Source: Escherichia phage QL01. From it: a DNA stretch of 64,000 nucleotides. The stretch lies in sequence record NC_028847.1. The stretch is one strand, 5' to 3'. A model generated the notes under the pieces. It did not search any database. It was not told the DNA's origin and was given only the letters and a program-made list of their open reading frames with translations. Made by a program: the position numbers and the translations under genes. Of this stretch, positions 2,748 through 36,962 are shown in pieces (the first letter of the stretch is position 1; each line of letters starts with the position of its first letter).

Positions 2748-3239
2748 ATGGAGTTGACAGATATCACTCGTGCATTTGAGTCAGGTGACTTTGCACGCCC
2801 TAACCTTTTCGAAGTGGAAATTCCATTTCTTGGTAAAAACTTTAGCTTTAAATGTAAAGCAGCACCAATGCCTGCTGGCATTGTAGAAAAAGTACCGGTT
2901 GGCTACATGAACCGTAAAATTAACGTAGCTGGTGACCGTACGTTTGATGATTGGACAATTACCATTTATAACGATGATGCACATGACACCCGTCAAGCAA
3001 TTGTCGATTGGCAGAATCTCTGTCACGGTATGACCAATGAAATTACCGGTGCAGCACCTGCAGAATATAAGAAACAAGCAGTAGTTCGCCAGTTCCATCG
3101 TGACGGCAAGACTGTGACCAAAGAAGTTACAATTTACGGCTTATGGCCTACTAACGTTGGTGAAGTCCAGATGGACTGGGACTCGAATAACGAGGTAGAA
3201 ACATTTGAAAGCACATTTGCTATTGACTGGTGGGAATAA
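2748..3239 (+). CDS. 19: tail tube protein gp19
   Basis: 163 aa, near-identical blocks to T4 gp19 (TRAFESGDFARPNLF..., LWPTNVGE...DWDSNNE). Confidence 0.96.
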   Translation: MELTDITRAFESGDFARPNLFEVEIPFLGKNFSFKCKAAPMPAGIVEKVPVGYMNRKINVAGDRTFDDWTITIYNDDAHDTRQAIVDWQNLCHGMTNEITGAAPAEYKKQAVVRQFHRDGKTVTKEVTIYGLWPTNVGEVQMDWDSNNEVETFESTFAIDWWE

Positions 3240-3268
3240 GTTTTTACTTTTATAGCAAATTATGATAG

Positions 3269-3276
3269 TATAAATA
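3269..3276 (+). promoter_or_regulatory. late promoter TATAAATA (GIY-YIG endonuclease gene)
   Basis: Consensus motif about 30 bp upstream of ATG 3307. Confidence 0.55.
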
Positions 3277-3306
3277 CATTCAAACAATGAAGTCAAGGAG
3301 TTTAGA

Positions 3307-3888
3307 ATGTATTGTACTTACTTAACCATATACACGGGGTCTAAACTACCCCGTCGTTATATTGGCTCAACATACGTTGAAAGGATTCTCAAAGAAGGAT
3401 ATAATGGTTCTGTATTATCCCAAGCATATAAAAAGATTTGGAATCTAGAACGTAAAGAAAATCCGCACCTTTTCAAAACCAGAATTTTATCTTTATTTGA
3501 AACCGATAAAGAAGCTCGTATAGCTGAGAAAGAGCTTCAAATAAAGTATAATGTAGTTAAATCTAAAAACTATATAAATATGTCATTAGCTCAGCCTGAC
3601 GGGTTCTTTGGAATGTCTCGTAAAGGGATTCCAATGAGTGAACATGCCAAACAGCTACAAAGAGATTGTAGGTTAGGTAAAAAGAGGCCTGAACATTCTA
3701 AAGCTCTAAAAGGACGTAAGCGACCAGACCAAGCCAAAGCTATGTCTGGTGAAGGTAATCCGATGTTTGGTAAAGAACATCCGGCTAAAGGCAAAAAGAT
3801 TAATCAGCCAAGGATGATTTGCCCTATCTGTGGTGTTGAATCAACTCGTTCGGCTATAACACGTTATCACAAACATGAAAATGAATGA
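3307..3888 (+). CDS. GIY-YIG (Seg-like) homing endonuclease
   Basis: N-terminal YLTIY...RRYIGST matches GIY-x10-YIG motif; basic C-terminal DNA-binding region; preceded by TATAAATA and AAGGAG SD. Confidence 0.7.
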   Translation: MYCTYLTIYTGSKLPRRYIGSTYVERILKEGYNGSVLSQAYKKIWNLERKENPHLFKTRILSLFETDKEARIAEKELQIKYNVVKSKNYINMSLAQPDGFFGMSRKGIPMSEHAKQLQRDCRLGKKRPEHSKALKGRKRPDQAKAMSGEGNPMFGKEHPAKGKKINQPRMICPICGVESTRSAITRYHKHENE

Positions 3889-3889
3889 G

Positions 3890-3897
3890 TATAAATA
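3890..3897 (+). promoter_or_regulatory. late promoter TATAAATA (gene 20)
   Basis: Consensus motif immediately after endonuclease stop. Confidence 0.55.
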
Positions 3898-3905
3898 GAA
3901 TTATC

Positions 3906-3923
3906 AAGGAGCTTCGGCTCCTT
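3906..3923 (+). terminator. UUCG-tetraloop hairpin (AAGGAGC-UUCG-GCUCCUU) between endonuclease gene and gene 20
   Basis: Perfect 7-bp stem with UUCG loop seen in sequence. Confidence 0.5.
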
Positions 3924-3945
3924 ATCCCATTCATCGGAGACTCTA

Positions 3946-5520
3946 ATGGCAAACTTTAATACAATATTAAGTTTTCTTAAGCCATGGGCTAATGAAGACG
4001 AAAAAGAATATAAACAACAAATTAATAACAATTTAGAGTCTGTCACCGCACCTAAGCTTGATGATGGCGCTCGCGAAATTGAGACACAAGAGCAAAATAT
4101 TCCTTATAATGCTCTTATGCAACAGATGTTTGGTAGTAATGAGCCTGAAGTTAAAAATACCAGGGAACTTATTGATACCTACCGTAATTTAATGAACAAC
4201 TATGAAGTCGACAACGCCGTACAGGAAATTGTGTCTGACGCTATTGTCTATGAGGATGATAAAGAAGTAGTTGCATTGAATTTAGACGGGACAGAATTTA
4301 GTCAAGCAATTAAAGATAAAATCTTGGCCGAATTCAGTGAAGTTTTAAACCTTTTAAATTTCCAACGTAAAGGTACTGACCATTTCCAACGCTGGTATGT
4401 AGACTCAAGAATTTTCTTTCATAAAATTATAAACCCTAAAAAAATGAAAGATGGCGTACAAGAGCTTCGTCGCTTAGACCCACGCCAAGTCCAATATATT
4501 CGTGAAATCGTTACACGTATGGAAGATGGCGTTAAAGTTGTAGACGGATATCGCGAGTTTTTCGTTTATGATACAGGCCATGAAAGTTATTGCGCTGATG
4601 GACGCATTTATTCAGCCGGGACTAAAGTTAAAATTCCTCGTGCTGCAGTGGTTTATGCTCATTCTGGATTATTAGATTGTTGTGGTAAAAACATCATTGG
4701 CTATTTGCAACGTGCTATTAAGCCTGCAAACCAGCTTAAATTGATGGAAGACGCAATGGTCATCTACCGTATTACACGTGCTCCTGACCGTCGTGTGTTT
4801 TATATCGATACAGGTAATATGCCTTCACGTAAGGCTGCAGCACAAATGCAACATATCATGAACACGATGAAAAACCGTGTGGTGTATGATGCTTCGACAG
4901 GTAAAATTAAAAACCAACAACACAATATGTCCATGACTGAAGACTATTGGTTGCAACGTCGTGATGGTAAAGCGGTAACAGAAGTTGATACAATGCCAGG
5001 TGCTACTGGTATGAGTGATATGGATGACGTTCTTTATTTCCGCACAGCACTTTACCGTGCGTTGCGTGTTCCTGAATCACGTATCCCTAGCGAGTCTAAT
5101 TCTGGTGTTATGTTTGATGCCGGTACAGCAATCACTCGTGACGAATTAAAATTCTCTAAATGGATTCGTCAACTACAAAACAAATTTGAAGAAATTTTCC
5201 TAGACCCGTTAAAAACAAACCTCATTCTTAAAAAGATTATTACAGAAGATGAGTGGGAAAAGGAAATAAATAATATTAAAGTTACGTTTAACCGTGATAG
5301 CTATTTCAGTGAAATGAAAGATGCTGAAATCATGGAACGCAGAATCAATATGCTAACGATGGCTGAACCATTTATTGGTAAGTATATTTCACATCAAACG
5401 GCTATGAAAGATTTCCTCCAAATGACCGACGAAGAAATTAATCAAGAAGCTAAGCAAATTGAAGAAGAGTCTAAAGAGGCTCGTTTCCAAAACCCAGATG
5501 AAGAAGAAGAGGATTTCTAA
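3946..5520 (+). CDS. 20: portal vertex protein gp20
   Basis: 524 aa, same length as T4 gp20 as recalled; position after gene 19. Confidence 0.93.
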
Positions 5521-5765
5521 TGGAAGATTTAATCGAAGCTATTAAATCAAACGACCTCGTAGCAGTTCGTAAAGCAGCAGCCCCGCTTATCGAATCTCGA
5601 GTAACCGCTTTGATTGAAGCCCGTAAAGCAGAAATTGCTCGCTCCGTTATGATTGAAGGCGAAGAAGCTGACGAAGATGACGAAGACGACGAAAAATCCG
5701 ATAAAGCAGATAAGAAAGACAAAAAAGAATCTGACGATGCGGATGATGACGAGGACGACGAATAA
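5520..5765 (+). CDS. 67: prohead core protein gp67
   Basis: 81 aa with highly acidic C-terminus (DEDDEDDE...), ATG overlaps gp20 stop; T4 order 20-67-68-21. Confidence 0.88.
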
Positions 5766-6193
5766 TGTTCCTTATCCCTGATGATTACGAATTAACTCTA
5801 GAAAGCGTAGAGGCCAAAATTCCAGAAGCACAGGGACGTTTTGCTGCTCTTTCTGAAGCGCTCGAGAAAAGCGATATAAATAATCTTGTAGAGAACATGA
5901 TTGCTGAAGGCGATATCGAATGTGCTATCGCTCTTGGTTCTTTAAATGAATCAATGGCTCTTAACGAATTTATCGTTAAACACGTTTCCTCTAAAGGTGA
6001 GCTTACTCGTACTAAAGATATTAAAACCCGTCAACGTAATGCGTTCCAAACGACAGGTTTATCTAAAGCAAAACGCCGTCAGATTGCTCGTAAAGCATCT
6101 AAAACCAAACGTGCTAATCCGTCTACTCAAGTACGTGCCGAACGTAAGCGTAAGAAAGCCCGTTCTAAACGTAAAGCTTTTGGACTTAACTAA
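5765..6193 (+). CDS. 68: prohead core protein gp68
   Basis: 142 aa, basic C-terminus, position between 67 and 21. Confidence 0.85.
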
Positions 6194-6828
6194 TGAAACC
6201 TGAATTGCTCATCGAACATTGGGGACAACCAGGTGAAATTATCGATGGGGTTCCTATGTTGGAATCTCATGATGGAAAAAATTCTGGGCTTGCTCCCGGC
6301 CTTTATATAGAAGGCATTTTCATGCAAGCAGAGGTAGTTAACCGTAATAAACGCCTTTACCCAAAACCTATTTTGGAAAAAGCCGTTGCCGATTATATGG
6401 CAGAACAGGTTGCTACTAAACAAGCTTTAGGAGAATTAAACCACCCACCTCGTGCTAACGTTGACCCTATGCAAGCTGCTATCATTATTGAAGATATGTG
6501 GTGGAAAGGTAATGATGTTTATGGACGTGCACGTATCATCGAAGGTGACCATGGCCCTGGTGATAAACTAGCTGCAAATATCCGAGCTGGCTGGGTTCCT
6601 GGTGTTAGTTCTCGCGGTCTTGGTTCTTTAACTGAAACCAATAAAGGATATAAGCGTGTAAACGAAGGTTATAAATTAACCGTCGGTGTTGATGCAGTAT
6701 GGGGACCATCTGCTCCTGATGCTTATGTAACTCCGAAGCAAATTACAGAATCACAAACGGTAGAAACCGATACCAGTGCCGATGACGCCTTTATGGCTCT
6801 CGCAGAGGCCATGAAAAAAGCGTTATAA
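6193..6828 (+). CDS. 21: prohead core scaffold protein and protease gp21
   Basis: 211 aa, position and size match T4 gp21. Confidence 0.9.
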   Translation: MKPELLIEHWGQPGEIIDGVPMLESHDGKNSGLAPGLYIEGIFMQAEVVNRNKRLYPKPILEKAVADYMAEQVATKQALGELNHPPRANVDPMQAAIIIEDMWWKGNDVYGRARIIEGDHGPGDKLAANIRAGWVPGVSSRGLGSLTETNKGYKRVNEGYKLTVGVDAVWGPSAPDAYVTPKQITESQTVETDTSADDAFMALAEAMKKAL

Positions 6829-6831
6829 ATA
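6824..6831 (+). promoter_or_regulatory. late promoter TATAAATA (gene 22)
   Basis: Motif overlapping gp21 stop codon. Confidence 0.55.
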
Positions 6832-6858
6832 TTATTATCTAAACAACAGGACTACAAA

Positions 6859-7674
6859 ATGCTTAAAGAACAACTGATCGCCGAAGCACAGAATATTGAT
6901 GCTTCCGTTGCTCTTGACAGTATTTTCGAATCAGTTAATATTTCTCCGGAAGCAAAAGAAACTTTCGGCACTGTATTCGAAGCTACCGTCAAGCAACACG
7001 CCGTGAAACTGGCTGAATCTCACATCGCTAAAATCGCTGAAAAAGCGGAAGAAGAAGTCGAGAAAAATAAAGAAGAAGCTGAAGAAAAAGCCGATAAGAA
7101 AATCCAAGAAGCTGCCGGTCGTTTCCTTGACCACGTTGCTAAAGAATGGATGGCTGAAAACCAGCTGGCTGTTGATAAAGGTATTAAAGCCGAACTGTTC
7201 GAATCCATGTTGATGGGTATGAAAGAACTGTTTGTTGAACACAATGTGGTTGTTCCAGAAGAAGCAGTAGATGTTGTTGCTGAAATGGAAGAAGAACTCC
7301 AAGAGCAGAAAGATGAAACCGCTCGTCTGTTCGAAGAAGTTGGTAAGCGCGACGCGTATATTAATTACGTACAGCGTGAAGTTGCTGTTACGGAAGCAAC
7401 TAAAGACCTGACTGAATCCCAAAAAGAAAAAGTTAGTTCTCTGGTAGAAGGCATGGATTATTCCGATGCATTCGGTAGAAAAATTGGCGCTATTGTTGAA
7501 ATGGTTAAAGGTCAGTCTGACGTTGAAAACCCAATCACCGAAGCCGCTATAAATAAAAATGTAGACGATGCTGCGGCACTGAATTACATTTCAGAAGCAG
7601 TTGAAGAAAAAGGCGCTAAGCCTACCCTGTCCTTCGCGGACCTGTCTGCAATCGCAGCATCACGAATTTCTTAA
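6859..7674 (+). CDS. 22: prohead core scaffold protein gp22
   Basis: 271 aa, acidic coiled-coil-like protein preceding major capsid gene. Confidence 0.9.
   Translation: MLKEQLIAEAQNIDASVALDSIFESVNISPEAKETFGTVFEATVKQHAVKLAESHIAKIAEKAEEEVEKNKEEAEEKADKKIQEAAGRFLDHVAKEWMAENQLAVDKGIKAELFESMLMGMKELFVEHNVVVPEEAVDVVAEMEEELQEQKDETARLFEEVGKRDAYINYVQREVAVTEATKDLTESQKEKVSSLVEGMDYSDAFGRKIGAIVEMVKGQSDVENPITEAAINKNVDDAAALNYISEAVEEKGAKPTLSFADLSAIAASRIS
7548..7555 (+). promoter_or_regulatory. late promoter TATAAATA inside 3' end of gene 22 (gene 23 promoter)
   Basis: Motif within gene 22 coding sequence about 140 bp upstream of gene 23, as in T4. Confidence 0.5.
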
Positions 7675-25435: not shown

Positions 25436-25465
25436 ATAGTACCACATCCTTGTGGTGTTGTAAAC
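25436..25465 (-). promoter_or_regulatory. early promoter GTTTAC-N18-TACTAT overlapping alt paralog 1 stop
   Basis: Motif on minus strand upstream of 25117..25407 ORF. Confidence 0.5.
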
Positions 25466-27588
25466 TACATTTTGAATTTATTTGATAAAGAAGAGATATC
25501 CAAAGACGCGGCAAGGATTTCCATAGCTTCGTTGCTTTCAGAAACGGATTCATTAACCAAGAATTGACTAAATCCATCCATCAGGCGAACTTCACCAGTT
25601 TCCATCAAATGGTCACCATCGTAAACAGATTCGCTGAGCTCTGAAGGAGGCGTTACGGTAGCTTCCATAAGGTATTTGTGAGATACTCTATCATTCATGG
25701 CAAAAGCCGCTACTTTATCAACCTTCAACAATAATCCACGCGGAAGGATAATTTCTGCTTCTTCGGCATATTCTGTAAGGTCACCAGGAGCGATAACTTT
25801 AACTGCTTCAGCACCTCGAATAACCATACCAATTTCAGCAATTCTATCTGCAGGACCTTCAGGTGCAATTGGATTACCAAACTCGTCTTCTTCCCATTCT
25901 ACCTCTTCGTCATCGACTTCACCCACATCAGATGAACTACCACTAGCCAATTTAAACAACTCATCAGCGGAGGACAAAGAACCTTCACCACCAACAAAAA
26001 CGGCTTGGTTGTCGAGGGCCATATAATTTTTACCGAATTCACCAAAGATGTTAGGCTTTAATGAGGCTGACACAAAGTTCTTAAAGTAAAATGTTTTGTT
26101 ATCGATATTATGGCGCAGAATTTTGTATGGCAAATCCTGACCACGATACAAAATAGTACCCTTAGGAAGTTTAATACCCTTAGTAAATGCTGAGTCTAAA
26201 TCCTTAATCAATTTAATAGCCGTTGTATTGTTTTCGGATTCAGGTTTACCTAAAAGGAATAAGTTCATAGGAGCATATTCAGCCGCGCAATATTCAATAA
26301 TAGCATTGCTTTCGTCTTTGGTTAGGTCCTTAGGTTTAATGAGCTCGCCTGAATAAGCATATGCATCACTAATAGAATCGTTAACCAGTTTATAAACGGC
26401 TTCCATAGCGAAAGCAATTCTAGATGCTTTCTCTGAAGGGGAACCCTTAAAACGGGTACTCAGGTTATTAACAATTTTCTTAATAATATCCAGACTATTG
26501 GTTGTATTGATTTGCGAAAGGCCACTTAAAAGTCTATCGACTTCTGTATTAAAAAATGCCATATTATTAGAGTAAATTTCAAACCCTTGTTTATCTCTAT
26601 TAGCATAATTTAGTTTAAATTTACTATCAGTCATTAAAGCGTGTGTGAGAGCAATAGTGTATCTAAAGTTGGCAAGGTCCTCGCTCTTAGATTTAAACTG
26701 AGAAGCCTGACGCATTTTAGTAATGGCACCTTTTTTAAAGTTCTGACTAATCTGTTCAATACCTTCGTTCTCAGGGCCTTCAGCCGTGTGAACCGGTACA
26801 GAAGCTTCAAACTCGTTATAAACCTGCAATTCTTTAGGGGACAAAGTTTCAGGCTCAGCAGTAGAATACTGCGCGGCCGCAGCCATACGACGCGAAATCT
26901 TAGTACGAGAGATAACGGCCTTATCAGTACGTTTCTCTTCAACTTGTGCAATAGATGCCGCTACGGCTTCTACTTTACTTACGGCCTGGCCTGTTTTCTT
27001 AGAAACATACACTTCGCCAACTTTAGACTCAACTTTAGTATAAAGATCGGCATTAATTTCAGGCATACCCTTGATATCTTCAATATTAGCACCGCGACGT
27101 ACTAAAAGAACGTAGGTATGTTTTCCGCTGAATTGGAACATGTCGTCAACAACTTTAAACTTACCACCGGTACGAGCCATAGCCAAACGAGCTAATACGC
27201 GCTGAACGGTAGGACCTTTACCTTTCATTTTCTTAGTAGGGAAACGGAATAAAACCGCGTCCATTTTAAGTTTGATTATTTGTTCATATATGGTATCGAA
27301 AATGGTGTTCAGTGTACCGAGTGGATCGGTACCCAAACCACCCTTGAGTTCTGCCGGAGCGCCTTTAGCAGATAAACTCATTAAGATAACATGGACGTAC
27401 TTATCGCCATTTTTAACCATCTTAATAGCGTCGCCTTCGGACGCATAAGATACCATACGTGCTACTAAATTGTCATTACCAGGAGCATGTACCGCAAAAA
27501 TCTGCGGTACGCCTGAGCCAGGTTTAAGATTTGTTACCGGATAGTTTTTAGCGGAATCGCTATCAAAAACTTCGTTTAAATTTTCCAT
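25465..27588 (-). CDS. Alt-like ADP-ribosyltransferase paralog 1 (most divergent copy)
   Basis: 707 aa; first ~200 aa nearly identical to paralog 2 and collinear with T4 Alt; C-terminal ART region with YRGQ, FVSASL (variant of STS) and EAEIILPRG; acidic insertion. Confidence 0.85.
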   Translation of the reverse strand: MENLNEVFDSDSAKNYPVTNLKPGSGVPQIFAVHAPGNDNLVARMVSYASEGDAIKMVKNGDKYVHVILMSLSAKGAPAELKGGLGTDPLGTLNTIFDTIYEQIIKLKMDAVLFRFPTKKMKGKGPTVQRVLARLAMARTGGKFKVVDDMFQFSGKHTYVLLVRRGANIEDIKGMPEINADLYTKVESKVGEVYVSKKTGQAVSKVEAVAASIAQVEEKRTDKAVISRTKISRRMAAAAQYSTAEPETLSPKELQVYNEFEASVPVHTAEGPENEGIEQISQNFKKGAITKMRQASQFKSKSEDLANFRYTIALTHALMTDSKFKLNYANRDKQGFEIYSNNMAFFNTEVDRLLSGLSQINTTNSLDIIKKIVNNLSTRFKGSPSEKASRIAFAMEAVYKLVNDSISDAYAYSGELIKPKDLTKDESNAIIEYCAAEYAPMNLFLLGKPESENNTTAIKLIKDLDSAFTKGIKLPKGTILYRGQDLPYKILRHNIDNKTFYFKNFVSASLKPNIFGEFGKNYMALDNQAVFVGGEGSLSSADELFKLASGSSSDVGEVDDEEVEWEEDEFGNPIAPEGPADRIAEIGMVIRGAEAVKVIAPGDLTEYAEEAEIILPRGLLLKVDKVAAFAMNDRVSHKYLMEATVTPPSELSESVYDGDHLMETGEVRLMDGFSQFLVNESVSESNEAMEILAASLDISSLSNKFKM

Positions 27589-27591
27589 TAT

Positions 27592-29637
27592 TTACCCTTG
27601 GATGAATTTTTCTGGCGTTTCGTCAAAATTAATACATGAAGCTAAAATAGGCATTATATCCACCTTGGTCGATTTGACGAATGAATCAAAAGACACAGGG
27701 TTGTCGGTCTCTGTTTCTACGCCTTGGTAAACAACCAATTCGCCGGTTTCCATCAATGCATCACCATCATAGATAACCGCATTTTCTGCTAGTTGGTCTG
27801 TGGTCTGGATATCAGCTTCCAATAATTTGGTGTTGTAGTTTCCTTTATATGAGGCATCTGTAATTTTAGTAATCTTAACAGTAGTTCCACGTGGAAGAAT
27901 AACCTCTTGTTCTGTTGGAGAACCTGACAATTTACCTGGCACAATTACGTTAATAGAGTCTGCACCGGAAATTTTCCAACCGATGTTCATCATTGTATTT
28001 TCGGAACTCGTCAGCATACTTGGAAGAACAATTTCATTATCGCCTTGGAAAGATGTCCCAGCGCGATAGTCCTGATGAACTGCGGCCATTGCGACGTTTG
28101 ATACCCAGCCGCCAAAGATAATCGGCTTAAGGGACGTTGATACATAGTTCCTGAAATAAAACAATTTTGAGTGTTTGATTTTATCAAAAGTGTTAACATT
28201 TAAATATTGACCACGCCAAAGTGTAATATCAGGTGGCAATTTATGGCCAATTTCAAATGCTGCATCCATATCATTAATTACTTCAATTACACGATAACTA
28301 TCAATAAATTCTGCATCCTCTTCATAATAATTACCCAACAAATAATTATTAACATCGGTATAATATTGGCCACAATAAGAAGAAATAGCCTCACGCTGCT
28401 CATACTCAAATCGATTATCGCTATAACTGGCTGTAAAATGCATAACACTTTCTGACGCTTCATTAGCAAAGTCGGTAACAGCAGCACTTATACGTTGAGC
28501 ATACTCTTGTTCCCAAAGCTCTGCTGCATATTCTGCCGCATCCATATTAGGAGGAGCCTCATTCATTTTTCTTTCAATAAATGCAGCTTTGCGAAGGTTA
28601 AGAACCTCTGCACATGATTCGGCAAAAATCTGCATCTGCTTCATACTGCCGACAGGAGCACGTTTAAGTTCACGATGCATACGGTTAAAAATTGGGTCAG
28701 AGTCTTCGACTCGAATTTCTTCTTTCCAAACACCGTTTGCTCGCATAGCCATATCTGCCGCGCGCATACGCTCCATAGTATTCGTTTCAGAAGGTTGAAT
28801 AAAAATTTCTAGTTCTTCATAATCATCGATAAGTTCCGCTGTTGCTGGGGCACTAAATTTTGATGCCTCTGCATCAATCTCATTCCAACCTTCCGGAACT
28901 TCATCTCGAGGAGAATACTGGGCTGCGGCTACAGCACGCCTAGAAATCTTAGTAGTAGTAATAACGGCCTTATCCGTACGTTTTTCTTCGACTGCCGCTA
29001 TACTAGCAGATAGTGCTTCTATTTTGGTTACCGATTGGCCTGTTTTCTTGGATACATAAACCTCACCAACTTTAGACTCAACCTTAGTGTAAAGGTCTGC
29101 ATCAATTTCAGGCATACCTTTTATGTCCTCAATATTAGCTTGTTTACGGACCAGTAAAACGTATGTATGTTTGCCTGTAAATTGATACATATCATCGACA
29201 ACTTTAAACTTGCCGCCAGTACGAGCCATCGCCAAACGTGCCAATACACGTTGAACAGTAGGACCCTTACCTTTCATTTTCTTGGTAGGGAACCGGAAAA
29301 GAACTGCATCCATTTTAAGTTTGTTTACTTGTTCGTATACAGTATCAAAAATGGTATTCAGCGTACCAAGTGGGTCAGAACCTAACCCACCTTTCAACTC
29401 GGCTGGGCTACCCTTAGCAGACAAACTCATCAAAATAACATGAACATATTTGTCGCCCGGCTTAACCATTTTAATAGCGTCTCCTTGAGACGCATAAGAT
29501 ACCATACGAGCAACCAGATTATCATTACCTGGTGCTTGGATAGAGAAAATCTGTGGAATACCGGAACCCGGTTTAAGATTTGTTACTGGATAGTTTTTAG
29601 CGGAATCACTATCAAAAACCTCATTTAAATTTTCCAT
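27592..29637 (-). CDS. Alt-like ADP-ribosyltransferase paralog 2
   Basis: 681 aa; conserved N-terminal region, WRGQ, YVSTSL, EQEVILPRG motifs, C-terminus ...PEKFIQG as in T4 Alt. Confidence 0.88.
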   Translation of the reverse strand: MENLNEVFDSDSAKNYPVTNLKPGSGIPQIFSIQAPGNDNLVARMVSYASQGDAIKMVKPGDKYVHVILMSLSAKGSPAELKGGLGSDPLGTLNTIFDTVYEQVNKLKMDAVLFRFPTKKMKGKGPTVQRVLARLAMARTGGKFKVVDDMYQFTGKHTYVLLVRKQANIEDIKGMPEIDADLYTKVESKVGEVYVSKKTGQSVTKIEALSASIAAVEEKRTDKAVITTTKISRRAVAAAQYSPRDEVPEGWNEIDAEASKFSAPATAELIDDYEELEIFIQPSETNTMERMRAADMAMRANGVWKEEIRVEDSDPIFNRMHRELKRAPVGSMKQMQIFAESCAEVLNLRKAAFIERKMNEAPPNMDAAEYAAELWEQEYAQRISAAVTDFANEASESVMHFTASYSDNRFEYEQREAISSYCGQYYTDVNNYLLGNYYEEDAEFIDSYRVIEVINDMDAAFEIGHKLPPDITLWRGQYLNVNTFDKIKHSKLFYFRNYVSTSLKPIIFGGWVSNVAMAAVHQDYRAGTSFQGDNEIVLPSMLTSSENTMMNIGWKISGADSINVIVPGKLSGSPTEQEVILPRGTTVKITKITDASYKGNYNTKLLEADIQTTDQLAENAVIYDGDALMETGELVVYQGVETETDNPVSFDSFVKSTKVDIMPILASCINFDETPEKFIQG

Positions 29638-29640
29638 TAT

Positions 29641-31725
29641 TTACCCTTGGATGAATTTTTCTGGGATGTCATAGAGGTCTATGCATGAAGCCAAAAGAGG
29701 CAGTACATCAAACCGTGTAGATTTAACAAATGAATCAAAAGATAAGGGGCTTTCGGAAGTATCGAAGTCATCTTGATATACGACCAACTCGCCGGTTTCC
29801 ATTAGTACATCACCATCATATACCACAGATTCTTGAAGCTCATCTGTTGTCATAACTTCAGCTTGAATGAGTTTTGTATTACTAGATGTTGTTCCATCAT
29901 TATTAGAAGCATCTGTTATTTTATTAACTTTGACCATTAATCCACGCGGTAGAATAACTTCGGCTTCAGTTGCTATTCCGAGATTTCCTGGATATACGAC
30001 ATTAACTTTATGGGCCCCATCAATAGCCCATCCTATTTGAACTTTAACATAATCAGGATTTTCTTTATATGCTCTTATTTCATTAGGATTAATAGTTATT
30101 CCTTCTTCATTTTTATCGACTGTCAATTCATTGCGAACTTCAGGTTCTAAAAGACCGATACCAGCGTGCGTAACACCAAAACGTCCGAAAATTATAGGGG
30201 TCAATGAAGTGGATACAAAATTTCTAAAATAAAACACTTTATTTTTAACTAGTGCTTCGTATATAGGAGCAGTCATACTCTGGGCACGATAAACTGTGAT
30301 GCCCTCTGGTATACGGTCGCCATTTTCAAAAGCAGAATCCAAATTATTAACTGCAGATTCGATATCTTTTTCGCTCATAACCTCATAGTTCTGAGGATTA
30401 TAACGTCCTAAAAGAAGATTATTTATGTCTGTATATCCTGAACCACAATATTCTCTGATACCACGCTTTTGTGATGGAGTATATTTAGAACCCTCACGAG
30501 CAATAGTAATATCGACCATAATACCGCCACCTACACCAGCAAAACTATACACGCGTTTTTTAATGAACTTGGTCTTGGCCGCTTTCCACTTGGCCTCTGT
30601 CAATTCGTTCCAAAGGTCATCAGGTTGGCCTTTACGGGTTCTGTTATGAATAGCCAGCCACTCGCCTTTGTATTCTTCGAAAATGGTATTAATAGTAGAG
30701 GCATATTTTTCTAGGGCTTTAACAGATGTCAAAGGTTCGTTTTTGATGGCCGTAAGGATTTTCTCTTTAATTTTCTCTTGGATTTCGCCAATACCGTGAA
30801 GTGGGAACAATTTGTAATCGTAATGCAATTCTTCAGCAGTGCCTTCAGCCACTATATTAGCAACCTTATTTTTAGCCGCAGGAGAATTGTTATTAGTAAC
30901 CATTTCCTGAGCCTCAGGGATTAATGGAACTGTTGCCGGTTTATTAAAATCTACTGCAGTAGCTTCATATTTCTTAAACAGCTCACTTTCATTACGATAA
31001 GATTCTAACGATTGACTTGCTGCAATGGCACGTCGAGAAATCTTAGTCTTGGTTATAACCATTTTATCAGTGCGACGTTCTTCAACCTTAGCAATACTAC
31101 CGGCAATAGCAGTTTCTTTAGTAACCTGCATGCCTTCTTTTTTGGAAATATAAACTTCGCCGACATCAGAATCTACCTTAGTATACAATTCAGCATTAAT
31201 TCCAGGCATACCTTTGATATCTTCTATATCAGCTTGTTTACGAACTACCAGGATGTAAGTATGTTTACCGGTAAATTGGTACATAGCCGGAACTACTTTA
31301 AAACGTCCACCTGTTTTCTGTGCTACCAAACGTTGGATAATCCGTTGAACGATAGGGCCTTGACCTTTCATTTTCTTAGTAGGGAAACGGAACATCACGG
31401 CATCCATACGAAGCTTTTTAACTTGGTCATAAACCACATCAAAAATAGTATTAATCGCATCTACGGGAGTAGGGCCTAGGCCACCTTTAAGTTCGGCAGG
31501 CGAACCTTTAGCTGAAAGGCTCATAAGGATAACGTGGGCATATTTATCACCCATCTTAACCTGTTTAATAGCATCACCTTCAGAAGCGTAGGATACCATA
31601 CGCGCCACTAATTGGGATTCTGCGTCACCAATCTTCCAAATCTGGGGTACTTTAAGTTTTGGGTTCAAGTTTACTGTAGGCAGTGTGCCTTCGGACTCAA
31701 ACACTTCATTTAATTGTTCGGTCAT
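29641..31725 (-). CDS. alt: Alt ADP-ribosyltransferase (closest to T4 Alt)
   Basis: 694 aa; long blocks matching T4 Alt (KISRRAIA.SQSLES, PSQKRGIREY.GSGY.DINN.LLG, VFYFRNFVSTSL, EVILPRGLMVKVNKITDAS, ...KFIQG). Confidence 0.95.
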   Translation of the reverse strand: MTEQLNEVFESEGTLPTVNLNPKLKVPQIWKIGDAESQLVARMVSYASEGDAIKQVKMGDKYAHVILMSLSAKGSPAELKGGLGPTPVDAINTIFDVVYDQVKKLRMDAVMFRFPTKKMKGQGPIVQRIIQRLVAQKTGGRFKVVPAMYQFTGKHTYILVVRKQADIEDIKGMPGINAELYTKVDSDVGEVYISKKEGMQVTKETAIAGSIAKVEERRTDKMVITKTKISRRAIAASQSLESYRNESELFKKYEATAVDFNKPATVPLIPEAQEMVTNNNSPAAKNKVANIVAEGTAEELHYDYKLFPLHGIGEIQEKIKEKILTAIKNEPLTSVKALEKYASTINTIFEEYKGEWLAIHNRTRKGQPDDLWNELTEAKWKAAKTKFIKKRVYSFAGVGGGIMVDITIAREGSKYTPSQKRGIREYCGSGYTDINNLLLGRYNPQNYEVMSEKDIESAVNNLDSAFENGDRIPEGITVYRAQSMTAPIYEALVKNKVFYFRNFVSTSLTPIIFGRFGVTHAGIGLLEPEVRNELTVDKNEEGITINPNEIRAYKENPDYVKVQIGWAIDGAHKVNVVYPGNLGIATEAEVILPRGLMVKVNKITDASNNDGTTSSNTKLIQAEVMTTDELQESVVYDGDVLMETGELVVYQDDFDTSESPLSFDSFVKSTRFDVLPLLASCIDLYDIPEKFIQG

Positions 31726-31779: not shown

Positions 31780-32004
31780 TTAAAGTACTAACAGCGTACG
31801 GTACACTTCAAATTTAGGACCCTTTTCATAGCGGTCGAAATTATCTTTAAAATCAGCGAACGCGATTTCATTTTCAAATTCAAGGACAATTTGGGACACT
31901 GCAGTGGAGACATCCCCACCTTCTTTATATCCAATAACCACGGTTTCTAAATAAGCTTTCATATTATAGACCAGTTTGAGACCAATCACCGAATACATCT
32001 TCAA
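31780..32004 (-). CDS. hypothetical protein
   Basis: 74 aa ORF between ligase and alt, followed by hairpin terminator; start may be internal ATG. Confidence 0.45.
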   Translation of the reverse strand: MKMYSVIGLKLVYNMKAYLETVVIGYKEGGDVSTAVSQIVLEFENEIAFADFKDNFDRYEKGPKFEVYRTLLVL

Positions 32005-33487
32005 ATGTATCAGCTTCTGTTTTATCGAAACGCCAACCTTTAATAATTGGAAGGAAAATACCTACAGTATCGGTACGTCCTTTAGAATGAACCCAACCAT
32101 TACATTCACAGTCGGCAATACGGCCAATCAATTTACCTTCACGAGCTTGTTTCATAAGAAGTTCACGGTCTAAATCAGGCCGGTCTTCCAATGGAATCAA
32201 TACCTTTTTACCTGATTTATCTTTCTTATGGGTGGTATCTTTAAAGCCTGAACCACAGTCACTTGTAATTCGACGACAACGTGATACTAATTCAACACCA
32301 CCAAGTTTGTTAGGGTCCTTCGAGTGTTCATAATAACCTACTACTTCTAAAGCAATATCGATTACTTCTTTGAACTTGATAAGATTCTTAGAACGGCGGT
32401 TTTCCCAGTAGGAGTCCATGTTCTTAAGGATAATACCTTCCAGACCTTGGTCGACATATTTCTTATAAACGACTTTAGCTTCTTCAAGATTATTAACCCA
32501 CTGGTTTTCGATAGCTTCAACACGCGTTGTGCCATGCAATACGACATTATGAGCCACCATAAGTTCTAAGGCTGTAAAGCGTACATCATACTTATCACCT
32601 TTAATTTTGCCTTCAGAATACACGACATCCAGTGGGACATAATCCCATGCCTGTAATACCATACCAGCGGCTTCAGATGGGGTGATAGTTCCTTGAAGAG
32701 CCTTATTAGCCAATCCATTTGACGTAGAACGATCGGCGACAGTTTGGAATTCTTTGGCTTTACTTAATTCAGGAAGTTCCTCGTCAAACATACTAAACAA
32801 ATCATTAGATGCTTTAGGTTCAACTTTAGGAGTATGGTAAACTAATTCGCCATCAATCATAACGCCATTAGGATGACGTTGACGAGCTTCTTCGGTCATC
32901 GCCATTAATTCAGCAGCTAAAAGATGAAGCCCTTGGTATTCATTACCACCACGAGTAAGGAATGTCACACCATCGTTACGAACTTCGGCAAAACAACGAG
33001 CACCATCAGCTTTTAATTGAGCAAACGCTGGCCATTTAATATTTTTCTTAATCAAAGCTTCATCATAAGAACTCGCCAACATCTGCTGTTGTTCAGGGAT
33101 TAAACCTTTCCAAACCTTGTTAGCAATAGAAATCGATGCACCACATTCAAGGTCGCGCATCATTACACGACGTAATACCTCGGCATCCGGGGCCTTAGCA
33201 TCAGCAATGATTTGAGCCAGTTCTTCAATAGCCGCATTACCCGTAATCTTACGTGTGGCTAATGTGAATTCAGCGAAATCAAGAAGGTCCTCAAGAGTAA
33301 TCATACCAAAGGATTGAGATGTAAATCCAGGTTCTGGCCACTTTTTAATACCGTAGTTCAGACGACGGGTATAAGCCATACGATAAACACGTTTCAGAAG
33401 CTCATTGTCCTTTTCACGAGCAATAATGGCTTCTTTAGCTTTAGTAGAATCAATAGCAGCAATTTCGTTTAAAATATCTAAAATCAT
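31964..33487 (-). CDS. 30: DNA ligase gp30 (ATP-dependent)
   Basis: Strong identity to T4 DNA ligase (RKITGNAAIEEL, RVMMRDLECGAS.SIANKVW.GLIPEQ, AQLKADGARCFAEVR, EGIILKN, CECNGW); start moved to ATG MILDILNEIA with GAGGTGA SD. Confidence 0.96.
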   Translation of the reverse strand: MILDILNEIAAIDSTKAKEAIIAREKDNELLKRVYRMAYTRRLNYGIKKWPEPGFTSQSFGMITLEDLLDFAEFTLATRKITGNAAIEELAQIIADAKAPDAEVLRRVMMRDLECGASISIANKVWKGLIPEQQQMLASSYDEALIKKNIKWPAFAQLKADGARCFAEVRNDGVTFLTRGGNEYQGLHLLAAELMAMTEEARQRHPNGVMIDGELVYHTPKVEPKASNDLFSMFDEELPELSKAKEFQTVADRSTSNGLANKALQGTITPSEAAGMVLQAWDYVPLDVVYSEGKIKGDKYDVRFTALELMVAHNVVLHGTTRVEAIENQWVNNLEEAKVVYKKYVDQGLEGIILKNMDSYWENRRSKNLIKFKEVIDIALEVVGYYEHSKDPNKLGGVELVSRCRRITSDCGSGFKDTTHKKDKSGKKVLIPLEDRPDLDRELLMKQAREGKLIGRIADCECNGWVHSKGRTDTVGIFLPIIKGWRFDKTEADTFEDVFGDWSQTGL

Positions 33488-33497
33488 AATCACCTCA

Positions 33498-33776
33498 TTA
33501 GTCATGGATTCTATTATAAGCCACATCAGCCAAAAGCAAGTCTAATCGCTTATGATAAGAGAACACAAATCTCATTCGCCCATCAGATTTGAACTTGGAC
33601 ATAAAGTGGACATAAATGAATCCCTGTTCGACGCATTCGCGCCAAACAGGATGGTCTTTAGCCGGATTTACATCAAATGAGTAATCATGATTCACATGAC
33701 GAATAAACTGGTTTACATGACCATAATCCATTGTAGTGGTAGGACCATAGTCTGAAATTGTATGAACTACAAACAT
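33498..33776 (-). CDS. hypothetical protein (30.1 position)
   Basis: ORF with GAGG SD before internal ATG (MFVVHT...). Confidence 0.5.
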   Translation of the reverse strand: MFVVHTISDYGPTTTMDYGHVNQFIRHVNHDYSFDVNPAKDHPVWRECVEQGFIYVHFMSKFKSDGRMRFVFSYHKRLDLLLADVAYNRIHD

Positions 33777-33777
33777 A

Positions 33778-34416
33778 TTAACCTCGAGCAATCCATTCAA
33801 CTGCGGCATTATTACGAAGGGATTCGATTGCTGCGATATCGTCCCATGAATTAACCTTTACGGCCAAATTAGGTTTAAAGTCACGTTCACCACGAGCCAA
33901 CCAATAAACTTGGATATCCATGAGAACATTAGATGCGGCATCACAGTGGTGAGCCAAATCATCAACATAAAACTTAATACGTTTACCGTACGTATTTTTA
34001 GCTCTTATGAAGAGGTCTTCTTTTGATTCTGAATGACCACACATCAGAATCTCCTTGAATGCGCCAGGGAACAAAGCATTCAAATTGAATTGTCTATTCA
34101 GCAGTGCATCAATTGAGTCGCCTAGCGCAGTCACGGCTACAAAATCGAAGTCTTTTTTGAGCTTGTTGATATGTTTTAATGCGTCCATGTAAGGAGACAG
34201 ATAACGAATAAAATCTGACTGATTGTACTTCTCGATTAAACGAGCGCCTAATTCATTATCACAATTAAACAGCTCACCAGGAGATAAGAAACGTTCGTCC
34301 TGAATCATATTCAAAATATGTTCTAAAGGCAAATTATATTTCTGTGCGAAATAAGGCAAGCCGGACTGCCAACTTAAACATACTCCATCGATATCTGTTA
34401 AGATAACTGGTTTCAT
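33778..34416 (-). CDS. HAD-superfamily-like hydrolase (30.2 position)
   Basis: N-terminal ILTDIDGV resembles HAD motif I (DxDG); 212 aa. Confidence 0.55.
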   Translation of the reverse strand: MKPVILTDIDGVCLSWQSGLPYFAQKYNLPLEHILNMIQDERFLSPGELFNCDNELGARLIEKYNQSDFIRYLSPYMDALKHINKLKKDFDFVAVTALGDSIDALLNRQFNLNALFPGAFKEILMCGHSESKEDLFIRAKNTYGKRIKFYVDDLAHHCDAASNVLMDIQVYWLARGERDFKPNLAVKVNSWDDIAAIESLRNNAAVEWIARG

Positions 34417-34871
34417 AATAAATCTCTCAATTTGTTTAGGATGTCGATAAACTCTTTTTCAGTTAGTATTGTATCACATTCTGTAAGGTGGCTCGCCATC
34501 GAATGCTTTAAAACTTTGCCCTTTGTAGCTTGTAATGCGTCGCGGAATCCTTTGTTTTGGAGCGCTGCTTCAAAATATGCATTTGTATACAACTCTTTCC
34601 ATGATGTAGAGTATCTTGAAAAGGGAATTCCAAGCCAGAAAAGCGTCCCACGGTCCGCAGCTCTTGCATAAGCTCTTCCAGTTTGTTGTGCGGCCAGACC
34701 GGACATCCCAAATATACGTTTTTGTTGTTCATGATTTCTCACCTTACACCCTTGGAGGAATCCTTCGAGCCCTCCAAATTGGATACCATCCATAACGAAA
34801 GGCCATTTAGCAAAGTTACTTAATGCACATGATGGCCATGGAAAATTGCTTCTTATTTCTAACTCAGACAT
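34413..34871 (-). CDS. NADAR/YbiA-like domain protein (30.3 position)
   Basis: Motif pattern LSNF...WPF..DG..F...E.FLQ resembles NADAR (YbiA-like) family signature; start placed at internal ATG overlapping upstream stop. Confidence 0.55.
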   Translation of the reverse strand: MSELEIRSNFPWPSCALSNFAKWPFVMDGIQFGGLEGFLQGCKVRNHEQQKRIFGMSGLAAQQTGRAYARAADRGTLFWLGIPFSRYSTSWKELYTNAYFEAALQNKGFRDALQATKGKVLKHSMASHLTECDTILTEKEFIDILNKLRDLL

Positions 34872-35076
34872 CTTTGACACTTATAATTTCGACATCAGCC
34901 CAATGACCATAACCAGGTAGACGGTCTTCAATAGATAATCCGCCATCAGATTTCAGCATTTTAATTGTTTTAGTATATGGTTCATCTTGTGGATGCACAG
35001 GAGATAAATCAGTTACACGATAAGTCACTTCGACCATTTCCGTACCTAATAATTTCTGAATCAATTTCTTAAACAT
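34864..35076 (-). CDS. hypothetical protein
   Basis: 70 aa ORF with GAGGA SD. Confidence 0.5.
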   Translation of the reverse strand: MFKKLIQKLLGTEMVEVTYRVTDLSPVHPQDEPYTKTIKMLKSDGGLSIEDRLPGYGHWADVEIISVKDV

Positions 35077-35077
35077 A

Positions 35078-35272
35078 TTATCCTCGCTTTAAACATTTGA
35101 TTACAGACAGTTCACCGCCCATGCGAACGTCTTCAGTTCCATCGACCCATAAGACGGTGTAGGCTTCTTTAATAGTAACATTACCTAATTTAAAAGCAGG
35201 TAGAACCTTGGAAATCATTCCAGGAATACCTACACCTTTTAACTGAACCGTTTGCGATAAGAATAATTTCAT
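35078..35272 (-). CDS. hypothetical protein
   Basis: 64 aa ORF, tightly packed with neighbours. Confidence 0.45.
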   Translation of the reverse strand: MKLFLSQTVQLKGVGIPGMISKVLPAFKLGNVTIKEAYTVLWVDGTEDVRMGGELSVIKCLKRG

Positions 35273-35273
35273 G

Positions 35274-35570
35274 TTAGCCTCGGTATTTCATTTGGAAGCA
35301 ATGCTGCTCGTCACATTCAATAAAGAACTTGCGGTCTGCAGCAGAAATAATAATTCGTTCATCTTGACGGGCGTCCGTTTTGATAGATTTCATATCATAA
35401 GACACTTTATCATACGGTATATAGATTTTATACACGTCGCCATTCTGGGCGAAATCAACACGGAATAGCTCTAGACCTATTAAATCAGTTACAAGACTGT
35501 TTATAGCATAGAACCCGTCAAGCTGGCTAGTAGGCAAACAGTACCATTTACCTTCAATAAACTCTAACAT
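35274..35570 (-). CDS. hypothetical protein
   Basis: Track start is TTG; internal ATG (MLEFIEGKWY...) has GAGG SD. Confidence 0.5.
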   Translation of the reverse strand: MLEFIEGKWYCLPTSQLDGFYAINSLVTDLIGLELFRVDFAQNGDVYKIYIPYDKVSYDMKSIKTDARQDERIIISAADRKFFIECDEQHCFQMKYRG

Positions 35571-36775: not shown

Positions 36776-36797
36776 ATGGGACTCCGAAGAGTCCCAT
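36776..36797 (-). terminator. hairpin terminator (GGGACUC-UUCG-GAGUCCC on minus strand) after 53-aa ORF
   Basis: 7-9 bp stem, UUCG loop, U-rich tail on minus strand. Confidence 0.6.
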
Positions 36798-36800
36798 AAC

Positions 36801-36962
36801 TTATGCCTGAGGCTTACCAAAGCAAGCAGCATCTGCACGCAATACTGCACGAGCACGAGCTTGAAGCTTATCAACTACCTGATTGATACGCTTGTTGGAC
36901 GCACGCTTGTAACCAGCGCGTTTAGAGGTACCGTCAACTACTTTAACTTCTTTCTTAGCCAT
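36801..36962 (-). CDS. hypothetical small basic protein (53 aa)
   Basis: Manual read: MAKKEVKVVDGTSKRAGYKRASNKRINQVVDKLQARARAVLRADAACFGKPQA; followed by UUCG-hairpin terminator; below track cutoff. Confidence 0.45.
   Translation of the reverse strand: MAKKEVKVVDGTSKRAGYKRASNKRINQVVDKLQARARAVLRADAACFGKPQA

Follow-up and report, generated by a model that had tools for sequence, protein, structure and literature searches.

What is the role of two overlapping genes of Escherichia phage QL01, one with NADAR-like and the other with HAD-like features, that lie in a region also harboring genes for Alt-like ADP-ribosyltransferases? The window that we analyzed is a 64,000-nucleotide stretch of the phage genome (NC_028847.1), and a sequence-only reading of it had raised the possibility that QL01 encodes both writers and potential processors of ADP-ribose marks. 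To address this question we examined the gene order of the locus, the family and predicted fold of each protein, and published work on their relatives.

Gene order around the two overlapping genes

Both ORFs are present on the minus strand where the sequence-only reading had placed them (Table 1), and they share an ATGA at 34413-34416 in which the stop codon of adfN overlaps the start codon of gene 30.2. A megablast comparison of the surrounding DNA revealed 99.4% identity to Escherichia phage vB_EcoM_FB and also 99% identity to IME281; these are T4-like coliphages. Locally, the T4 gene order is reproduced as 30.4, 30.3, 30.2, 30.1, 30 (ligase), alt.1 and alt, all on the minus strand. The order 30.3-30.2-30.1-30-alt is also kept in T4, RB69 and Acinetobacter phage fHyAci03, and synteny of alt, the ligase gene and the 30.x genes is shared by Klebsiella phage Mineola with T4, RB69 and an Acinetobacter phage. 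The stop of gene 30.4 overlaps the adfN start by 8 nt, a layout that T4 shares. At the other end of the pair, the Pfam and PHROG matches of gene 30.1 begin at residue 12 of a 103-aa ORF, and an internal ATG at 33776 is the likely start of this orthologue. The NADAR and HAD genes had been described as lying downstream of DNA ligase; transcription of the minus strand places both of them upstream of the ligase gene.

Table 1 Features of the adfN-30.2 region and the Alt array in the QL01 window
Feature	Description	Coordinates	Strand	Supporting match
Alt-like gene	Alt-like ADP-ribosyltransferase, 707 aa, tandem array	25465..27588	-	PF03496
Alt-like gene	Alt-like ADP-ribosyltransferase, 681 aa, tandem array	27592..29637	-	PF03496
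Alt-like gene	Alt-like ADP-ribosyltransferase, 694 aa, tandem array	29641..31725	-	PF03496
Gene 30	ATP-dependent DNA ligase	31964..33526 (exact start codon ambiguous)	-	Pfam PF01068, E 2e-23
Gene 30.1 orthologue	DUF3045, next gene in the direction of transcription	33498..33776	-	PF11243, E 6e-16; PHROG 2054
Gene 30.2 orthologue	C1-capped DxD-type HAD protein, NT5C-like predicted phosphatase, 212 aa	33778..34416	-	PHROG 420
adfN (T4 gene 30.3 orthologue)	Predicted NADAR fold, 152 aa	34413..34871	-	PF08010; 86% identity to T4 gp30.3
Gene 30.4 orthologue		34864..35076	-	PHROG 2042, E 4e-34

A promoter and terminator scan showed no enrichment of promoter-like sites (17, versus 20.8 expected from shuffled sequence) and did not define a transcription unit. 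Just past a 30.9-like ORF (36801..36962), a strong hairpin resembling an intrinsic terminator is found on the minus strand at 36776..36797, with ATGGGACTCTTCGGAGTCCCAT followed by TTTTGTTTCT; the transcription unit with genes 30.8 to 30 may begin here. Several close relatives with 98-99% identity match the interval 33400..35300 in two pieces that together cover about 220 bp more than the query, pointing to a short extra insertion in the block that is absent from the QL01 window. The gene order differs in two T4-like contigs from IMG/VR (4007-5969), where the NADAR gene and the 5' end of the ligase gene overlap directly, with neither 30.2 nor 30.1 in between.

The NADAR protein encoded by adfN

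The product of 34413..34871 begins MSELEIRSNFPWPSCALSNFAKWPFVMDGIQFGG and contains ALSNFAKWPFVMDGIQF, the LSNF...WPF..DG..F pattern that had been likened to the NADAR/YbiA family. An in-frame GTG at 34880 would add three residues to the protein; the ATG is the start in the homologues and in the annotation of T4. The product matches the Pfam family Phage_30_3 (PF08010) with a score of 215.1 bits against a cut-off of 36 (E 3.9e-64, profile positions 2-138 of 138), and its 152 residues differ from those of T4 gp30.3 by 21 substitutions (86% identity over the full length). Residues E36, K43 and H123 are invariant in an alignment of the adfN product with its T4 and RB69 counterparts, and the three remain unchanged across 10 homologues, down to 41% identity. 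The C-terminus runs 15 residues past the RB69 truncation point, as it does in T4.

A structural model of the adfN product, generated with AlphaFold from a 10-sequence family alignment, has a pLDDT of 88.7. Foldseek searches of the PDB with this model revealed just three matches at a probability of at least 0.99, namely YbiA (2b3w), the Phytophthora PnNADAR in complex with ADP-ribose (8bau) and the Geobacter lovleyi NADAR (8bat), with TM scores of 0.57-0.68; all other hits had probabilities of 0.02 or less. YbiA was also the sole match when the PDB was searched with the adfN family profile (E 1e-3); in a single-sequence search it was not significant (E 1.2). No useful match for either the adfN product or gp30.2 was obtained from NCBIfam or PADLOC. 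The model predicts a C-terminal helix at residues 141-154 with a pLDDT of about 90. H123 is located in an LKHS motif, and the last predicted strand consists of residues 123-125 of the 155-aa model, which in numbering from the ATG at 34871 are residues 120-122 and immediately precede His123. The phage NADAR clade is marked by a His in place of the catalytic Glu/Asp (PMC11543638), and the equivalence of H123 to that residue is taken from published work (PMC11125620, PMC11543638). Judged from the profiles and the model, the product is a predicted NADAR-superfamily enzyme. The resemblance noticed from the pattern is thus borne out by PF08010, by the fold search and by the YbiA profile hit, and the checks that had been proposed along with it (Pfam assignment, structure prediction and active-site comparison) returned a NADAR family, a NADAR fold and the retention of E36, K43 and H123.

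The function of the T4 orthologue has been described. Johannesman et al. [quoted passage not shown] In the same study, the deletion phenotype of adfN in T4 and T2 was specific to DarTG1 hosts, and the DarTG1 sensitivity of RB69 was traced to a frameshift that deletes the last 15 residues, loss of the C-terminal helix lowering activity (PMC11825919). Hydrolysis of guanosine-ADPr by the T4 protein in vitro was reported independently (PMC11125620, PMC12945103), while the protein was inactive on thymidine-ADPr (PMC11125620) and cytidine-ADPr (PMC12945103). T4 AdfN is fully active only during T-even infection, and DNA modification was excluded as the reason (PMC11825919), implying an additional phage factor.

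We predict that 34413..34871 encodes a functional AdfN, because E36, K43, H123 and the full C-terminal helix are all present and the protein is 86% identical to T4 gp30.3. In the mechanism that was shown for the T4 protein and that this prediction extends to QL01, the DarT1 toxin of a DarTG1 host would attach ADP-ribose to guanines of the phage DNA and so block its replication; AdfN, a minimal NADAR domain, would then cleave the N-glycosidic bond, releasing ADP-ribose and restoring the guanine, so that the phage would escape the defense. Like T4 gp30.3, the QL01 protein belongs to PF08010, carries E36, K43, H123 and an intact C-terminal helix, and is encoded between 30.4 and 30.2 with the same overlaps; QL01 differs from T4 in representing a different genus-level lineage and in having three Alt genes.

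Comparison with other NADAR proteins places the phage protein more closely. The NADARs of the DarG1 antitoxins from E. coli C7 and Geobacter lovleyi (8bat; Schuller et al. 2023, PMC11543638) have the same fold with equivalent catalytic Glu and Lys residues and would share with the phage protein the guanine-ADPr hydrolase chemistry that was demonstrated for the T4 orthologue. In contrast to DarG1, however, the phage protein is a bare core that lacks the N-terminal extension and carries, in its last strand, a His where DarG1 has the catalytic Asp. The phage protein is also an orphan with no adjoining DarT, and its T4 version fails to neutralize DarT1 in uninfected cells. The identification of the gene as darG1 of a DarT1-NADAR operon was rejected, as its neighbors are 30.4 and 30.2, it encodes only the 152-aa core and PADLOC returned no match. 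By analogy, the adfN product would work like DarG1 but outside that system. Structurally, E. coli YbiA (2b3w) comes closest (Foldseek E 4.6e-5, TM 0.68), and no other PDB entry was hit by the sequence profile, but YbiA shows 19% identity and has a Glu where the phage clade has the His. For YbiA, a housekeeping role or a role as N-glycosidase of riboflavin intermediates has been described, with no protection against DarT1 in vivo (PMC11125620).

Two further observations concern the integrity and coding content of adfN. T4 annotates a gene 30.3' as 'internal translation in a different reading frame', and QL01 has a counterpart, a 74-aa ORF in another frame within adfN (34508..34732, minus strand). 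This frame is open for 76 codons in QL01 and T4, and in fHyAci03 and Vibrio phage Va3 it contains open stretches of 75-78 codons, at positions that may or may not correspond; in RB69 and Klebsiella phage TU02 it is interrupted. With the frame broken in RB69 and TU02, we rejected 30.3' as a gene, and it is probably not conserved as one. The adfN gene itself is damaged in several phages: one IMG/VR contig (3980-4441) has it as two separate ORFs, RB69 (3010-3423) has the frameshift, and several phages in GenBank show fragments of 86-109 aa. These broken copies suggest recurrent loss of a counter-defense gene.

The HAD protein encoded by gene 30.2

The product of 33778..34416 begins MKPVILTDIDGVCLSW and contains the ILTDIDGV segment. 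It belongs to PHROG 420 (E 1.5e-70), and its first ~195 residues, which correspond to the HAD core, share 72% identity with T4 gp30.2. The overlap with 30.3 and the position of the gene are common to T4 and QL01. However, gp30.2 of T4 and RB69 (6475-7311 and 3466-4281 of the loci compared) is 278 and 271 aa long, respectively, whereas the 212-aa QL01 protein ends right after the HAD core and lacks the Pro/Trp/Asn-rich C-terminal tail of ~60-70 residues found in the other two, so any function of the tail would be absent in QL01. Within the family, many proteins have 200-220 aa and others 270-350 aa, which suggests that the tail is a variable add-on.

Motif I of gp30.2 is D8-I-D10-G-V, and neither aspartate varies among the 34 close or the 92 distant relatives. 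The remaining HAD motifs were located in the 34 close homologues, in which K132 and D152-D153 are invariant and T96 is nearly so; among the 92 distant relatives, conservation of D153 is at least 90%. The model of gp30.2 has a pLDDT of 93.8 and shows a Rossmann-like HAD core with a cap, a helical insertion of the C1 type (approximately residues 16-86) that separates motifs I and II. Hence gp30.2 is a DxD-type HAD-superfamily protein, and the four motifs together with the capped fold confirm the HAD assignment that had been proposed from ILTDIDGV. Two aspartates in HAD motif I indicate phosphatase rather than dehalogenase chemistry. By standard HAD chemistry, gp30.2 would be a Mg2+-dependent phosphomonoesterase that forms an aspartyl-phosphate on D8. 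A nucleotide or other small phospho-sugar would be its most likely substrate, because its nearest recognizable relatives are 5'(3')-deoxyribonucleotidases.

The relationship to these nucleotidases is a distant one. gp30.2 scores below every Pfam threshold, including that of the generic HAD family, with NT5C (PF06941) the best at 13.4 versus 24.8 bits, and T4 gp30.2 likewise has no Pfam hit. PDB searches with the single sequence and with the profile gave nothing significant, the best match being cdN at E 0.13-0.25. A profile search of 1.8 billion representatives recovered 1227 relatives, and 31 of the 92 distant ones are NT5C-positive at E <=1e-3, far above any other family; for one such relative, hhalign gives a full-length alignment to the gp30.2 profile with a probability of 98.9%. 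gp30.2 is therefore best described as a putative NT5C-like protein and not as a member of NT5C, the relationship being transitive only. With the 5'(3')-deoxyribonucleotidases (NT5C; cdN 2jao and mdN 4mum) gp30.2 shares the C1-capped HAD fold and the DxDGV motif I, and W16, an aromatic residue eight after the nucleophile, aligns with a Phe in cdN. Our literature search found no relevant paper on the function of gp30.2, and we found no evidence that ties the protein to ADP-ribose.

Relation of adfN to gene 30.2, the ligase gene and the Alt array

From the sequences and models together, we put at about 0.87 the probability that the locus comprises adfN, encoding a predicted DNA-guanine ADP-ribosylglycohydrolase, and gene 30.2, encoding a putative HAD phosphatase, which are the orthologues of T4 30.3 and 30.2, with the Alt genes in the same early block but without a demonstrated functional tie. 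The NADAR component of this reading had been characterized before in T4, and gp30.2 is an uncharacterized member of a known superfamily. Three other readings assign closer relations to the genes of the block.

The one that survives best holds that gp30.2 is functionally coupled to AdfN, either as the T-even-specific factor implied for T4 AdfN or as a clean-up enzyme for a phosphorylated product or for ADP-ribosylated guanine nucleotides. The ATGA overlap, present in both QL01 and T4, points to translational coupling of adfN and 30.2, and 30.2 is directly downstream of adfN in all 13 of the close IMG/VR loci. Among the 19 distant IMG/VR loci the gene is adjacent in three and ~1 kb downstream in one, and a distant relative lies ~0.7 kb upstream in one, but the other 14 have no such neighbor. 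In Acinetobacter and Morganella phages 30.2 comes right after adfN, whereas this adjacency is absent in Jiaodavirus, Aeromonas 31.2, Atu_ph04 and CcrColossus. The two genes have near-equal distributions (adfN in ~1500 and 30.2 in ~1450 phage records); however, nearly all T4-like phages have both, and the host distribution is the same for the two, so their co-occurrence was rejected as evidence of linkage. The gene order of the block is also conserved in general. A phage factor is implied by the T4 work, which excluded DNA modification (PMC11825919), but that role could at least equally well fall to a replisome or DNA-binding partner, and hydrolysis by NADAR proteins does not need a phosphatase step. 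We consider a partnership of the two proteins unlikely. If it were true, 30.3 and 30.2 would form a two-enzyme counter-defense module, with gp30.2 acting as the AdfN factor or as a house-cleaning nucleotidase for ADP-ribosylated guanine nucleotides.

A comparable arrangement in KVP40-like Vibrio phage Va3 also counts in favor of such a partnership, as a bona fide but different NT5C gene (Pfam E 3e-12) overlaps the 3' end of the NADAR gene there (3007-3958). The pair adjoins the gp47/46 nuclease genes and not the ligase gene. We rejected the Va3 neighbor as an orthologue of gp30.2, with which it aligns in motif I alone (BLASTP E 0.003 over 19 residues; hhalign 65%), and a search of the first 50 kb of the Va3 genome found no gp30.2 homologue. 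The Va3 pair is a second, independent NADAR-nucleotidase pairing.

In another reading, gp30.2 is an end-healing 3'-phosphatase for nucleic acids, comparable to the HAD phosphatase domain in T4 polynucleotide kinase, and acts together with the adjacent ligase. C1-capped HAD enzymes usually take small substrates, whereas polynucleotide phosphatases are not known to carry a cap. The helical insertion at ~16-86 in the gp30.2 model is such a C1 cap. Moreover, about 50 other HAD structures, mostly small-molecule phosphatases or dehalogenases, outscore Pnkp, and the sequences related to gp30.2 are NT5C-type nucleotidases, all of which makes the end-healing role highly improbable.

The Alt genes were the basis of the proposal that QL01 encodes writers as well as processors of ADP-ribose marks. 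The array is indeed present, though its distance had been given as ~3 kb; the nearest Alt gene ends ~2 kb from the HAD gene and the array extends from 2 to 8 kb. The paralogues are 40-47% identical to one another and 32-47% identical to T4 Alt, with the Arg, S-T/A-S and ExE motifs retained in all of them. Whereas QL01 has three full-length copies, T4 has a single alt gene and the duplication remnants alt.-1 and alt.-2. The third copy carries an insertion of ~30 residues after its STS motif.

The least probable of the readings, in our estimate, is that the NADAR protein erases the marks of the phage's own Alt-like enzymes and forms a writer/eraser pair with them. One argument for it is that the early-gene block also contains the three Alt paralogues, at a distance of 2-8 kb. 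We also counted in its favor that Alt presumably falls in the R-S-E clade of ARTs, together with the guanine-modifying toxins pierisin and ScARP. Iyer et al. further noted that the NADAR genes of T4-like phages are expressed early, along with ARTs (PMC9503650). However, the T4 orthologue has been characterized as acting on nucleic-acid guanine-ADPr and is inactive on T-ADPr and C-ADPr, the reported adfN deletion phenotype of T4 and T2 is specific to DarTG1 hosts, and the targets described for Alt are host proteins, among them the alpha subunit of RNA polymerase (PMC9503650). Our literature search found no evidence of AdfN acting on the protein marks of Alt. The alt-ligase-30.x order is ordinary conserved synteny, and the NADAR gene is found in the tRNA region in Jiaodavirus and in Aeromonas phage 31.2; in the Jiaodavirus phage Mineola, 30.2 and alt remain in the ligase block and the NADAR gene is far away. 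The proximity of adfN and alt is conserved T4 gene order and not a dedicated writer/eraser module. Of the original proposal, the processing of ADP-ribose by a NADAR protein stands, as reported for the T4 orthologue (PMC11825919), but the mark whose removal was shown for that orthologue is on DarT1-modified DNA guanine; the further speculation that the protein acts on Alt products finds no support, in view of the characterized guanine-ADPr substrate, the DarTG1-specific phenotype and the conserved synteny that accounts for the Alt neighbors.

For the preferred reading, in which adfN and gene 30.2 are the orthologues of T4 30.3 and 30.2, the consequences are as follows. Almost all of the GenBank records that we encountered label both genes as hypothetical, and the NADAR gene can now be named adfN. 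gp30.2 is of interest as a highly conserved protein (~1450 phage records) encoded beside a counter-defense gene that is implied to need a phage cofactor. Finally, the intact adfN allele predicts that QL01 would be resistant to the defense of DarTG1-carrying E. coli, which would be useful when the host range of phages for therapy is considered.
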